From: a virus
Lineage: Duplodnaviria; Caudoviricetes
IMG/VR virus record: IMGVR_UViG_3300011008_000002
DNA length: 64,000 nt
Direction: 5' to 3' (one strand)
In this document: piece after piece, positions 7,572 to 57,001 of the stretch
Position numbering within the stretch: position 1 is the first letter of the stretch
Layout of the letters: each line of letters opens with the position of its first letter
Position numbers and translations under genes: made by a program
Notes under the pieces: model-generated
Databases searched by the model: none
Told to the model about the DNA's origin: nothing
Seen by the model: only the letters and a program-made list of their open reading frames with translations

Positions 7572-7636
7572 ATGAAACTCCTTTCTCTGTAAGTTTGTAT
7601 GTTGTACGTCTATTTAATATAGTCTCAAATATAAAA

Positions 7637-7680: not shown

Positions 7681-8898
7681 TTAGTTTGCTAATTTCTCTA
7701 TTGTAAATACAAAGAAAACAAACATCGCTTTACGATAATTCCCAAGAGAACCAACAGTACTAACTTTAGACCTCATATCCAGCTCTTCCATCCACTTATC
7801 GAGGATTGCTTTAATCTCGATAATATTTTTATTTGTTGTATTGGATTGTCTATAAATCTGGATACAATGAACGTAGAACTTATTGGTTCCAGCATCACGC
7901 AACGATGCATGGGAATCCGGATTATCGTTTAAGTACAAATAGAGCAGACGTTCGATAATCTGTCTTATGTCTTCTCTGTTGTTTTCCGATACCAAAGCAA
8001 GAATACAAGTCTGCAATACATTGACAGATACTGCACTATTCTTTGCTGCAAGCTCTATGAGCTTTCTATCGGGACCATTTACAACAAGGTTGGTTAATAC
8101 CTTATTTGTAATACGATCAACTGCAAAACTATCGCTATCTGCTTCGTAATAGTGCTCATCTGAGAAATCTTCTTTTTCACTTTGAAGATAATTCTGCTCT
8201 TTGTAGTTCTTTTCAAACTCTCCCCTAAGTTTTCTCATAAAGCTATTGATACGAGAAGTAGCATCATTAATAAACTTCACAAAATCAAGGTCGCCACCCT
8301 TAGCAATTCTACTCTTATGAGTATTATAACAGGTGGTTGTAATCTCTGTAATAGCAGCAAGAATAGTTCCTGATTTCTTTAACTTAAACCTATTGGAGAG
8401 ATTAGCTATTGTATAAGCCATAATAGCTTCATTTGGTGGATACTTATAATACTTCGTAAAGTGATATTGATAAATATTGGTTGTAAGGTAAAGAATACTG
8501 TAATTCAGATAATCATTGTTATTTGCCTTAGCAAAGTACCGCATAGACAATACAATACCAATATTATACGGAGTATTGAAATTTGACCACTTTGGGTCAT
8601 TACCCACTATTCTTGAAAGTGATGCGTGTATTTGTTCTTCTGTAAGACCACAACTTGCCAAGAACTGAGTAACCTCAGAAGGAGAACGGTTAGGTCTTGT
8701 TGAAGGACCAATGCTAGAATAACAAGCAATATTATTTGCCATATATTTATCGAGGATATCTTTGTACTGTTTTAAGTTAAATTTATCCTCTAGTGATTTT
8801 TCCACAATCGGATATAACTCTTTACGAAGAACTGCTGAGTCAGCACTAACTGATTCTAGTAAAGCAGTGTCTTCGTCTATAGGAAATGGATAATCCAT
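7681..8898 (-). CDS. hypothetical helical protein
   Basis: Start revised to ATG 8898 (MDYPF) behind AAAGGAGG; AACA-N6-TA at 8922-8933. Confidence 0.8.
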   Translation of the reverse strand: MDYPFPIDEDTALLESVSADSAVLRKELYPIVEKSLEDKFNLKQYKDILDKYMANNIACYSSIGPSTRPNRSPSEVTQFLASCGLTEEQIHASLSRIVGNDPKWSNFNTPYNIGIVLSMRYFAKANNNDYLNYSILYLTTNIYQYHFTKYYKYPPNEAIMAYTIANLSNRFKLKKSGTILAAITEITTTCYNTHKSRIAKGGDLDFVKFINDATSRINSFMRKLRGEFEKNYKEQNYLQSEKEDFSDEHYYEADSDSFAVDRITNKVLTNLVVNGPDRKLIELAAKNSAVSVNVLQTCILALVSENNREDIRQIIERLLYLYLNDNPDSHASLRDAGTNKFYVHCIQIYRQSNTTNKNIIEIKAILDKWMEELDMRSKVSTVGSLGNYRKAMFVFFVFTIEKLAN

Positions 8899-8964
8899 TG
8901 TATATTCCTCCTTTCTAGTATTATACCCTTGTTCAAAACACAAAAAATGATGGATTTTATAAAT

Positions 8965-9345
8965 TAAATATTCCTATACAAAAAAAGTAATGGGAGGTTC
9001 AACTGATGGCACAGTATTCCCTCCCGAGTTGTCAACTAATTAGCTGATATCGACAGCAGTAGGCGTATATTTGATTTGATCATAATAAGGTACGCCTACT
9101 GCCCATGTTGTCTGCCTAGAATCAGCTTTAACAAACAGCTGTTTCCCAATGGCTTCCAACTTGGGTGATAGGTGATGAACTGGTTTCCCGTATGTACTTA
9201 TACGGGAAGCCAAGTTCATCTCTAGTCCTCATATCGAGTTCCATATCTAATTACCTCCTTTCATAAAGTATAAATAGAAAGTATTATACTTTCTATTTAT
9301 CTAAGTATTTAATATAGTTACAAAAAGTCTATGAACCTGAATTTT
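8965..9345 (-). repeat. MELD element copy 1 (promoter, palindrome, frameshifted peptide gene, terminator)
   Basis: Homologous to 22715-23031; ATG 9244 with SD AAAGGAGG; conserved C-terminal peptide lies in the +1 frame ending at 9040. Confidence 0.8.
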
Positions 9346-9411
9346 TGTAATAGTAAAAAATAAATGGGCAAGTGGTATATTTCAACCCTTGTCCATTTAC
9401 TTATGTGAGAA

Positions 9412-11871
9412 TTACTTCTCGTTAATTCTGATACGAATAATAGAGTCACCACGTCTTACCGGTGCAACTTTCGCACATTTTGCGTGTCTCGATAGTACCT
9501 TAATCGCAGATATATCAACTTCTGTCTTGTCACCTGATTGCATCTGGAATACCATAGTGGAATTATATAACTTATCGTTCATTGGTATTATCTTAAAGAC
9601 TTCATCTCCATCGTTTAATCTCGTAAGCTCTAGCATTGTCTGACGTTTCTTTGTTGCCATAAATGCTTCATCGAGTTCAACGATTTTAGCAAAGCCTTTC
9701 TTTGTAACAATACAAACTTCTTTTACACCGCGATTGATACAAGCATTCTGTACTTCATCATCCGCATCTATCTTCATCACCTTTTGACCTTTAGTCTTTC
9801 TACCAGTGGAAGGAGATAAAGACAATCTTAGAATAATACCAAATCCTTTCTTGGTATAGATAAGACGTTCATTGTCACTATCACTAAGTAGACCCATAAA
9901 GCAAACTTCATCACCTTCATTGAGAAGCATAGCTCCGAGTCTTGTTCTCGTGACACTGAACTCTGTTAAAGGAGTCGCCTTAATCAACCCTTTCTTCGTA
10001 AAGCAATATAACCGATACTTATCTGGGTTGTCTTTGATAGAAGGAAGACAAGTCTTTATCGCCGTAATAGCTTCACCTGTTATACCAAGTAATTGGTCAA
10101 GACCCATACCTTTTGCAGATGGGTCAGCCGCAGGTATCTTGTCAATCGGAAGATAACACCATTCCCCAAGATTGGTTCCAATGTGGATATAATCCGCAGA
10201 GGTGATATCTTGGAAATATGCGATTACATCATCGTCCGGTTCCAAGAACCCTGTGCCCAAACCTGTAGGAGATAGTCTCTTTACATATTTCTTAGTGACA
10301 ACTACTCGATAATGAAATACTGGAGTACCTGCATCTTCAGGCTTGATAATGTGACACTGTCTTGGTTTCCCAAACAACTTCTTCCCTTCTTCAAGTTCTT
10401 CCCATATTATTTGCTTTATCCTCTTACTAGAGGAAAGAATATCTTCTTTCTCTTTAATCTTACTATCAATCTCAGAGAACTCTTTTTGATATTCTGCAAT
10501 ACTTCCTTTCTTCTGAGCTTTTACTTTCATATTAGATATCAAATTTGCCTGATATGATGTAAACCCAAACCTTGACGTAAGTTCACTGATGATTTCCTCA
10601 TCTGTCTCAGCTTTCTTTATGATATCGAATACATCATCAATCAGTTTCTGATTTCCAAGCCGCACCAAAGCTTCCAACCGATGCTTTTCTTCTCTGAGTT
10701 TTAATAACTCCTTTGCAATCGTTCTGTGTTTAATGTCAATCCTCCAGTCAATCCACTTCAATATACTATCCTTTAATGGAACTGAACCAGTATCCGACAT
10801 CATTTTGGTACGATCGGCATAATTCAGTAATATCTGAGCAGTAGCCCTTAATCCTATGCTATTATCGTTATAGAGTTCATTAATAACATAGTCGGGGTCA
10901 ACGCCCTTCTTTAAGAGAATCCAGAATTCTGTCGTTTCCAAATTACTCTTATCAGAGATATCTTTAATTCCTAATGGACTGCGTTTTTCTCTTTGTCCAA
11001 TAGCTCGAATAATAGCATCCATCGTGGTCTTTTCAGGAAATCCGTTACAGAGGATATAGTTACCTTCCTCGTGATATACAAGTTTTGCTCTAATCCTAAC
11101 AGTTCCTGAGCCAACTGCACAAATGTCTTTTATAACACCATCATCAATGATGTCATAACCTCTTGGGCTATCCGGGAAGAGATAAACACCTTCCATCTCT
11201 GGATGTTCAAGTAATGCCTGAGTCAGGCTAAATGCCTCAATCAAATTACACGGAACCATTGAGAATGAATTACCCCATGCAATTCCTATTGTAAGGTTCA
11301 ATAGGAAATTTGGATATCTTGCAGGAAGTACAACAGGTTCCACATCGCTTCTCAGGTAGTTCTGTTGCATTTCAATAACAGATGGGTCAAACTCCTCGAA
11401 GAAACATTTCCATGCATACTGGCTAAGCCTTGCATCCAAATAACGAGGAGCAGCTGCATCATCGCCTGCCACCGACCCTTCATTTCCATCCATATCTATA
11501 TATAACGCATTATTCTCCCACGTTTTAGTCACATTCTCAAACGCAGTAGCGATACTTTGATCGCCATGCGGATGATATTTCGTTGTAGAAGGGAGAAATT
11601 CTAGTGCTTTTTGGTACCTTCTATCCGGGTAGAGTTTCTTATCATGATACATGAACCATAAAGTTCTTCTTACTACGTTGATAAGCCCATCATATAATAA
11701 TGGACAACCTCTTGCCACAGAGACATTGGCACCATAACGAACAATTCGCTCTTTTGTGTACTCACCGGCATCTATCAATTCAATGTTCTGGTCATACATC
11801 TCTTGAGTCTCTATAATGTCTGAGGCTCTTTTCTTAGGACTTTTCTTGCTTGCCAATATCTTCACCTCCAA
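9412..11871 (-). CDS. type IIA topoisomerase subunit A (GyrA/ParC-like)
   Basis: DGL...RR, YHPHGD, AAAPRY catalytic Tyr, C-terminal beta-pinwheel repeats (TKKG...). Confidence 0.95.
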   Translation of the reverse strand: MEVKILASKKSPKKRASDIIETQEMYDQNIELIDAGEYTKERIVRYGANVSVARGCPLLYDGLINVVRRTLWFMYHDKKLYPDRRYQKALEFLPSTTKYHPHGDQSIATAFENVTKTWENNALYIDMDGNEGSVAGDDAAAPRYLDARLSQYAWKCFFEEFDPSVIEMQQNYLRSDVEPVVLPARYPNFLLNLTIGIAWGNSFSMVPCNLIEAFSLTQALLEHPEMEGVYLFPDSPRGYDIIDDGVIKDICAVGSGTVRIRAKLVYHEEGNYILCNGFPEKTTMDAIIRAIGQREKRSPLGIKDISDKSNLETTEFWILLKKGVDPDYVINELYNDNSIGLRATAQILLNYADRTKMMSDTGSVPLKDSILKWIDWRIDIKHRTIAKELLKLREEKHRLEALVRLGNQKLIDDVFDIIKKAETDEEIISELTSRFGFTSYQANLISNMKVKAQKKGSIAEYQKEFSEIDSKIKEKEDILSSSKRIKQIIWEELEEGKKLFGKPRQCHIIKPEDAGTPVFHYRVVVTKKYVKRLSPTGLGTGFLEPDDDVIAYFQDITSADYIHIGTNLGEWCYLPIDKIPAADPSAKGMGLDQLLGITGEAITAIKTCLPSIKDNPDKYRLYCFTKKGLIKATPLTEFSVTRTRLGAMLLNEGDEVCFMGLLSDSDNERLIYTKKGFGIILRLSLSPSTGRKTKGQKVMKIDADDEVQNACINRGVKEVCIVTKKGFAKIVELDEAFMATKKRQTMLELTRLNDGDEVFKIIPMNDKLYNSTMVFQMQSGDKTEVDISAIKVLSRHAKCAKVAPVRRGDSIIRIRINEK

Positions 11872-22714: not shown

Positions 22715-23031
22715 TCAATATTCCTATACAAAAAAGTAATGGTAGGTTCAACTGATAGTGGTCAGTATTCCCTCCCAAAACACATCGTCAGCTAATTAGC
22801 CGTAAATAACACGAGGTATGTACTTGATTTGCTGTGAGTATGGTACGCCCACAGCCCATGTGGAGTTTTTCAGGTCAGCCTTATCAAAGAACTGTTTCCT
22901 GAGAGACTTCAACTTGTCTGGTAACTGCTGAGCAGTTGGGATATTCTCCTAAACCTGCTCAGCAGTTCTCATATCGAGTTCCATATCTAATTATTTAATA
23001 TAGTTGCAAAAAGTCTATGAACCTGAAATTT
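22715..23031 (-). repeat. MELD element copy 2 (peptide ORF 22796-22984 with TAG in a hairpin loop)
   Basis: Homologous to 8965-9345; in-frame TAG at 22949-22951 inside a 13-bp inverted repeat. Confidence 0.8.
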
Positions 23032-56617: not shown

Positions 56618-57001
56618 CTACTGCCCTCCATATCTCACATAATCGTAGCTTACAATTCGGTTCTGATTATCGTGGTTTTTCATAATCTTTGGGAATAACC
56701 TTCCTTTTCCATTATTTATGAAAAACATATTGGTTGCATCAGAGGGTATCTTTAACGCTATATAAAACGTATCATTATAAGTATCAACTTCACAATTCAC
56801 AAATTTAACAGATTGAAGCGAGGCTACAACTTTATCAGAATTTAACACATCCCCGGCAGTATCAAATACAAATAAATCGTAGCCAGTATCTTTACCCGTA
56901 TCAAGTTTGTCCATTGAATCAATCACCATTTTAGCAAAATCTATCGGACTGATATCACCTGGGCGTTTTACTTCAATAATGAAGTTCACATCTTTATGCA
57001 T
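56618..57001 (-). CDS. hypothetical protein
   Basis: 127 aa, SD AAAGGAGG. Confidence 0.7.
   Translation of the reverse strand: MHKDVNFIIEVKRPGDISPIDFAKMVIDSMDKLDTGKDTGYDLFVFDTAGDVLNSDKVVASLQSVKFVNCEVDTYNDTFYIALKIPSDATNMFFINNGKGRLFPKIMKNHDNQNRIVSYDYVRYGGQ

Follow-up and report, generated by a model that had tools for sequence, protein, structure and literature searches.

The window, a stretch of 64,000 nucleotides representing the reverse strand of positions 132958-196957 in a 229,126-bp IMG/VR phage record (estimated to be 97% complete), carries on its minus strand a small peptide gene, here designated copy 1. It lies between a GyrA-like gene at 9412-11871, which has PF00521 and PF03989 domains, and a 420-aa gene at 7681-8943. 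The phage genome has a G+C content of 37% and uses the standard genetic code, and no tRNA genes, including suppressor tRNA genes, were found in it. Three paralogues of this MELD peptide gene are present in the 229-kb gut phage (copies 1, 2, and 4), and the family has about 62–67 codons. In our numbering, copy 3 is a cassette with an unrelated 55-aa ORF, and copy 4 is the third peptide paralogue. Copy 2 (22796-22984, minus strand) reads MELDMRTAEQV, then an in-frame TAG followed by ENIPTAQQLPDKLKSLRKQFF..., and its part after the TAG reads ENIPTAQQLPDKLKSLRKQFFDKADLKNSTWAVGVPYSQQIKYIPRVIYG. Copy 4 is located outside the window (genome G000:C1:33986-34170, minus strand) and reads MNMTEKLPLRSCYIYNNL, an in-frame TAA, and then NQARLEAAKDQFFTKADPRQTTWAV..., with no start codon in its C-terminal part. 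The copy 3 cassette, also outside the window (genome G000:C1:86551-86917, minus strand), has an intact ORF (MDFRSRVYWFGKF...).

Analysis of the sequences flanking copy 1, all on the minus strand, revealed a set of modules that recur at other copies. Directly before the cassette, a hairpin and T-run at 9353-9398 were read from the sequence as the putative terminator of the GyrA-like gene, and an equivalent hairpin and T-run stand in the same place at copies 2 and 3. The next module, TTCAGGTTCATAGACTTTTTGTAACTATATTAAAT at 9307-9341, is 34/35 identical to that of copy 2 and is also found at copy 3. It ends in the motif CTATATTAAA, which occurs 13 times in the genome, mostly with an SD or an SD and ATG visible downstream, and is likely a phage-specific promoter −10 element. 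Examples of this motif are found at 7613-7622 in the window and at 56999, 119039, and 29650 in the genome; it is usually preceded by a T-rich stretch, and several of the leaders have a hairpin. The leader hairpin of copy 1 (9270-9300) has a perfect 14-bp stem and a 3-nt loop, and that of copy 3 shows compensatory changes at the stem base. Downstream of the ORF, the module GGGAGGGAATACTG..CAGTTGAACCTCCCATTACTTTTTT at 8981-9025 follows each of copies 1–4, which accounts for its four occurrences in the genome. From their recurrence and position, TTCAGGTTCATAGACTTTTTGTAACTATATTAAAT would act as a promoter and GGGAGGGAATACTG..CAGTTGAACCTCCCATTACTTTTTT as a terminator; simple sigma-70 and terminator scans called neither of them.

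Copy 1 has intact promoter, leader, SD, and terminator modules; its promoter, leader hairpin, and terminator modules also flank the unrelated 55-aa ORF of copy 3. The ORFs of copies 1 and 2 begin with 21 nt that agree at 20 positions, and the ORF bodies are 65% identical at the nucleotide level. In copy 2, a deletion between TTAGAT repeats has removed both the leader hairpin and the SD. Copy 4 has the shared terminator module; its upstream region differs and begins with an 18-bp perfect hairpin containing the SD.

In the relatives whose GyrA is 82–83% identical, the slot after gyrA contains three mutually unrelated ORFs of 55, 91, and 79 aa (L009:6546-6713, L010:6453-6728, and L012:6444-6683). 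The ORF in L012 has an internal perfect hairpin of about 8–9 bp with a 6-nt loop. Near-identical modules around unrelated orphan ORFs, in variable slots between conserved replication genes, are also known from the PeSL cassettes of T4-like phages (PMC2839356, PMC4122927). As in PeSLs, conserved promoter and terminator motifs bracket unrelated ORFs in hyperplastic regions, and the modules (34/35) are far better conserved than the ORFs between them (65% at the nucleotide level). Unlike in T4, however, the terminator and the promoter are separate modules at opposite ends of the cassette, and the module sequences are unrelated to those of T4 PeSLs. The best explanation is that the MELD peptides form a small orphan gene family whose copies reside in exchangeable promoter/ORF/terminator cassettes, in variable slots beside replication genes. 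Judging from the slot contents, cassettes may have been exchanged between relatives.

The reading frames of copy 1 are as the preliminary description had given them. A strong Shine-Dalgarno sequence, AAGGAGG (9254-9260), is positioned 9 nt before the ATG at 9244, with identical spacing in copy 3. From this ATG, frame 0 encodes 38 aa (MELDMRT...AVC) and stops at 9128; the ORF at 9128-9244 reads MELDMRTRDELGFPYKYIRETSSSPITQVGSHWETAVC, and its homology to the family is confined to the first ~13 codons. The conserved peptide is found in the +1 frame, where an ORF of 59 aa, open from an internal ATG at 9219 down to 9040, reads MNLASRISTYGKPVHHLSPKLEAIGKQLFVKADSRQTTWAVGVPYYDQIKYTPTAVDIS. This ORF is the one recorded by public gene calling (P0001). 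It contains the conserved C-terminal part, ..KPVHHLSPKLEAIGKQLFVKADSRQTTWAVGVPYYDQIKYTP.., a block common to copies 2 and 4. The ATG at 9219 lies within the base of a hairpin and has an SD-like GAGGA six nt upstream (9230-9226).

Comparison of the C-terminal parts of copies 1 and 2 over 40 aligned codons gave a pN of 0.25 and a pS of 0.68. There were nine synonymous codon differences, consisting of one CTA/TTA pair and the eight third-position differences from which coding selection had been proposed earlier. The two parts share 22/40 residues, against 15.7 ± 2.1 expected when the same 42 substitutions are re-placed randomly (P = 0.003), and in only 19% of such trials does the frame stay open. 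The constraint is thus above chance, and the comparison indicates that the conserved block is coding, or was coding until recently.

A palindrome interrupts copy 2 at its TAG. It has perfect arms of 13 bp (22967-22955 and 22935-22923, minus strand), and the TAG is situated in its 19-nt loop (22954-22936). When only this loop is reverse-complemented, the TAG disappears and an open frame of 62 aa, MELDMRTAEQLGYSPKPAQQLPDKL.., is obtained. The seven flipped codons read LGYSPKP, and 4/7 of these match copy 1 compared with 0/7 as assembled; of the matches, LG lies in frame 0 of copy 1 and KP in its +1 frame. A random 19-mer gave an equal match together with an open frame in 0.3% of trials (P ~0.003). 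Among the copies, inverted repeats flanking an ORF-changing inversion are present in copy 2 only. An inversion leaves the length unchanged and therefore cannot repair copy 1, and for the repair of copy 4 by inversion no flanking repeat longer than 4 nt was found.

The frame change of copy 1 falls inside a 47-nt quasipalindrome of 19 bp at 9174-9220 (minus strand), as described before. Its outer stem, GATGAAC.TGG / CCA.GTTCATC, retains a bulge and a mismatch, and its inner stem, TTCCCGTAT / ATACGGGAA, is perfect and encloses the loop AAGTAC. An 85-nt segment around 9220-9174 folds at −31.1 kcal/mol (z = −5.5), and none of 200 shuffles folded as well. From ATG to stop, copy 1 has 16 nt more than copy 2. 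Three of these are one extra C-terminal codon, and the remaining excess of 13 nt is in the N-terminal part. Any 13-nt deletion at index 15-79 opens a 63-aa frame in copy 1, and against copy 2 as assembled such deletions give 29–30/62 identities, with the placement unpinned over a span of 60 nt. Against the loop-flipped copy 2, the maximum of 33/62 is reached only for deletion starts 9210-9196. Because this plateau is limited to the hairpin apex, the frame change can be placed there, between LG (frame 0) and KP (+1) of the flipped reference, in agreement with the preliminary description. The earlier value of 33/62 for the 63-aa peptide was thereby reproduced, and it requires the loop of copy 2 to be flipped.

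One placement of the 13 extra nt on this plateau is TACATACGGGAAA at 9184-9196 (deletion start index 48), a choice among starts 9210 to 9196 that score equally. With this placement, TACATACGGGAAA combines the loop bases that remain with a copy, in inverted form, of TTCCCGTAT (9208-9200); its nine-base part ATACGGGAA (9193-9185) is exactly complementary, in inverted orientation, to the TTCCCGTAT immediately upstream. Upon removal of TACATACGGGAAA, copy 1 reads ..LGFPYKPVHHLSPKL.. in one frame, and its hairpin is reduced to the 10-bp outer stem (GATGAAC.TGG / CCA.GTTCATC) with a 13-nt loop, which resembles the 13-bp stem and 19-nt loop of copy 2 in almost the same codons. No donor for the apical bases was found elsewhere in the phage genome. 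An equally good account of the 13 nt would be four additional codons together with an indel of one base in the CCC/GGG/AAA runs.

On balance, the probable explanation is that an orphan gene family in decay, housed in variable promoter/terminator cassettes, has suffered palindrome-mediated lesions of its DNA. The ancestral gene would have had a hairpin-forming palindrome around codons 8–21. In copy 1, DNA synthesis would have folded back on this palindrome and added about 13 nt at its apex, a loop remnant together with an inverted copy of TTCCCGTAT, making the inner stem perfect and shifting the frame. Because of this shift, the strongly initiated frame 0 would now lead to a product of 38 aa, most of it out of frame, and the conserved C-terminal part would be obtainable only from the internal ATG at 9219, buried in the hairpin base. 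In copy 2, the equivalent hairpin would have been hit by a loop inversion, the other classic outcome of template switching, which created the TAG. The inverted loop of copy 2 and the resemblance of the 13 nt of copy 1 to inverted neighbouring bases both point to a DNA lesion at the palindrome, and we infer that the two sister genes bear, at the same structure, two lesions that are both signatures of a single mechanism. The lesions would thus be genetic, at the DNA level, and most likely mark a dispensable gene family in decay, rather than translational recoding. The OFF state suggested for copy 1 in the preliminary description is supported in this form, as a gene broken by a DNA lesion at a palindrome. 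What the sequences show directly is the anatomy, the coding constraint on the C-terminal part, the homology regained by the loop flip, and the lack of recoding signals. From these we infer a template-switch mechanism, its direction, and a loss of function; no second genome or read set among the databases searched shows the unbroken gene state.

A published account of template switching (PMC7202029, citing Ripley 1982) describes quasipalindromes as hotspots at which template switching perfects the repeat and causes frameshifts. In this mechanism, a nascent strand folded back on the hairpin copies itself, and an inverted duplicate is added. Copy 1 has the corresponding features, namely a mutation in an imperfect repeat, templated by the opposite arm. 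The 1982 Ripley model was reportedly first drawn from T4 rII frameshifts. Compared with the template-switch mutations of the E. coli lacZ QP reporters (PMC7202029), the lesion of copy 1 is alike in that it lies in an inverted repeat and shifts the frame, and in that the bases gained complement the neighbouring arm in inverted orientation and leave the repeat more perfect. It differs in size, 1–4 nt being typical of the reporters versus 13 nt in copy 1, and in that the event is reconstructed from a comparison of paralogues, which cannot prove its direction.

The flip of copy 2 is the companion lesion, which dates and locates the break of copy 1. Hairpin loop inversions of 4–50 bp are pervasive in chloroplast DNA (PMC12371153). 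The 19-nt loop of copy 2, turned over between short perfect repeats, is similar to the minute inversions of chloroplasts (Kelchner & Wendel 1996, reviewed in PMC12371153), and no dedicated recombinase is needed in either case. Those inversions are in non-coding DNA, whereas the loop of copy 2 is coding and its flip creates a stop in a phage gene.

All three peptide copies look damaged, as copy 2 has lost its leader and SD and copy 4 is not repairable by a repeat-flanked inversion. There is a counterweight to decay. Three out of three copies are broken although synonymous sites are saturated and dN/dS is ~0.17, so all three lesions would need to be recent. Three recent lesions by chance are somewhat unlikely, and a switch, or ongoing translation of the C-terminal part, therefore retains some probability. 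In addition, the palindromes of copies 1 and 2 have the same position and different sequences. This hints that the hairpin itself is selected for some role.

Continued function of copy 1 seems to us unlikely. In that case, a 59-aa protein would be made from the ATG at 9219, and the MELD frame would be a leader ORF whose translating ribosomes open the hairpin (translational coupling). The 59-aa ORF is intact, includes the whole conserved block, and is the publicly called gene; GAGGA is six nt upstream of an ATG that lies in the hairpin base, and all the modules of copy 1 are intact. However, this arrangement is not conserved. Between the TAG and the conserved block, copy 2 has no in-frame ATG or GTG and only a TTG without SD, and copy 4 is without any start codon. 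Moreover, the N-terminal LG motif, which is common to the flipped copy 2, lies in frame 0 of copy 1, and the 59-aa form would therefore be a truncation of the ancestral protein.

A recombinase-free on/off switch, which we consider rather improbable, would have the loop of copy 2 flip and the apex of copy 1 gain or lose templated bases by template switching. Such switching, driven by replication, would toggle early mini-genes, and the hairpin would be kept in the coding region for the sake of switchability, an idea about as doubtful. The phage population would keep a mix of ON and OFF mini-genes of which the assembled genome happens to show the OFF states, for which we would likewise give only a small chance. 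The perfect 13-bp arms of copy 2, the single flip that restores an intact homologous ORF, the breakage of both copies 1 and 2 exactly at palindromes, and the still strong coding constraint on the C-terminal part would all fit. Intragenic inversions flanked by inverted repeats and creating premature stops have also been documented in gut bacteria (bioRxiv 10.1101/2023.03.11.532203). In these invertons of the premature-stop type, as in copy 2, the orientation of a segment flanked by inverted repeats sets whether the ORF is full or truncated, and the setting is the gut in both. But they are thought to be mediated by an invertase, one example is 57 bp, and both orientations are seen in reads, whereas the spacer of copy 2 is 19 nt and was seen in one orientation, and copy 1 has an insertion rather than an inversion.

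The other state was present in no read or contig (one run, as contigs, ~4x word depth). Since copy 2 is without leader and SD, flipping it back would not obviously restore expression, and a templated insertion of 13 nt is not readily reversible. No serine invertase or resolvase is encoded in the genome. The sole recombinase found was a tyrosine recombinase of the Phage_integrase family (genome G000:C1:12878-13366, in an open frame of 378 aa), located ~160 kb away and far from all copies.

Ribosomal recoding at the hairpin, by a +1 frameshift or a short hop giving a 67-aa fusion of MELD and the C-terminal part, is very unlikely. Candidate sites would be, for example, a hop from UAC 9196 to UAC 9192 or CUU_G at 9214 (index 30). 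The frame change does lie within a strong hairpin, beside topoisomerase genes as in T4, and upstream of a coding-constrained part, and matched codon pairs are present (TAC/TAC with a 1-nt gap, AAG/AAG, and GAA/GAA). Such pairs are expected by chance in 90 nt, and none is backed by homology to copy 2. Nine matched take-off/landing pairs were found in copy 1, and in 0/9 is the take-off codon followed by a stop or an evidently slow codon, frame 0 being open to 9128. CUU_G is the only codon that keeps its amino acid on the +1 overlap; the codon after it is GGC, which is not evidently slow, and GAGGA is 11 nt upstream. A +1 frameshift of the prfB type would have a shift-prone codon, a stop or slow codon, and an SD-like element ~3 nt upstream, and this combination is absent from copy 1.

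The T4 gene 60 bypass spans a coding gap of 50 nt in the gene for a topoisomerase subunit. It is similar to copy 1 in having a hairpin at the frame interruption of a phage gene and genes for type II topoisomerase nearby. A stem-loop at the take-off site is seen in both, at 9220-9174 in copy 1, and a hairpin alone does not discriminate between the explanations. Unlike gene 60, copy 1 has neither a stop after take-off nor a homology-supported take-off/landing pair, it is not a topoisomerase gene itself, and its paralogues are broken differently. For these, recoding would have to work differently, by read-through of UAG in copy 2 and of UAA in copy 4, and copy 2 is fully explained by DNA inversion. 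Our searches gave no relatives with which conservation of a signal could be shown. Recoding is unlikely because the signals are missing and because copies 2 and 4 would require read-through of UAG and UAA without a suppressor tRNA, and the programmed recoding proposed in the preliminary description is accordingly not sustained. Stop-codon reassignment was rejected: ORF lengths were not meaningfully better under any single reassignment, the genome has no tRNA genes, and all copies end in TAA.

An error of sequencing or assembly at the hairpin is highly doubtful. It would, for instance, have put a surplus base into the CCC/GGG/AAA runs of what is truly an intact 67-aa ORF. The phage is present in a single listed DNA run, as contigs, and the depth there is low (~4x word depth, about 2.5–6 on average); removal of one base between 9208 and 9187 also restores a single frame. 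On the other side, neither a letter nor an indel difference at copy 1 appears among the Logan contigs of that run, nor any variant or joint at either hairpin, though they have little power at this depth and their cover of 9184-9210 is uncertain. Large ORFs of up to 4,066 codons are intact, so indel errors are not common in the assembly, and the 19-nt inversion of copy 2 is shorter than a read and not of a kind that assemblers create. Processing of the RNA, also suggested earlier, is not supported, as the sequence gives no hint of a 13-nt RNA excision.

If palindrome-mediated lesions are the true explanation, two sister genes in one genome have met different textbook outcomes of template switching, and have done so at the same hairpin, a clean natural example. 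Annotators could then take as a warning that ribosomal bypass or frameshifting is not the necessary explanation when a phage gene has a frameshift or stop at a hairpin, and the locus offers a simple test, namely to flip the loop or delete the inverted copy and check for regained homology. If the states interconvert instead, the locus would join the few existing indications that short palindromes can serve as genetic switches without an enzyme. Overall, we see here a neat case of a known mutational mechanism acting in an orphan phage gene, and we give an enzyme-free switch a modest chance. As the gene has no known function, the biological stakes are modest.

The conserved peptide had no homologue in a pattern scan of IMG/VR or in JGI metagenome contigs. 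A word search of 5.8 billion proteins and an exhaustive HMMER search over 1.84 billion representatives found only the peptide itself. Blastn of the locus against GenBank phages gave no match, and neither the terminator motif nor a homologue of the 420-aa neighbour was found in IMG/VR. Pfam and PHROGs searches with the flipped copy 2 peptide, the 59-aa ORF, and the copy 3 ORF returned nothing significant, and Rfam detected no family in the whole window. AlphaFold2 on the C-terminal part, with three sequences, gave a pLDDT of 55.6, which is not usable. No RNA run was listed for the phage.

Hairpins are not confined to the frame change. A second palindrome occurs in the C-terminal part of copy 1 at 9056-9102 (minus strand), with perfect 12-bp arms, GCAGTAGGCGTA / TACGCCTACTGC, and a 23-nt loop. 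Its 3′ arm covers the tail codons YTPTA, which differ from YIPRV of copy 2, as if overwritten by the arm that encodes AVGV. The whole copy 1 transcript folds at −120 kcal/mol, compared with −71 for shuffles (z = −11), and other small ORFs of the phage, as well as 2/3 of those in the relatives, are also hairpin-rich. Such hairpins could themselves be functional.

Two minor observations concern the surroundings. At window position 22758, in the loop of the copy 2 terminator module, an additional C is present in one Logan contig of the source run, perhaps as a low-depth variant or through an error. The sequence ATGGAAGAGCTGGATATGAGGTCT (..MEELDMRS..) occurs at 7768-7791 (minus strand), in the 3′ part of the downstream 420-aa gene; apart from a 3-nt gap, 19/21 positions match the first 21 nt of the MELD ORFs, a similarity that could be due to chance.
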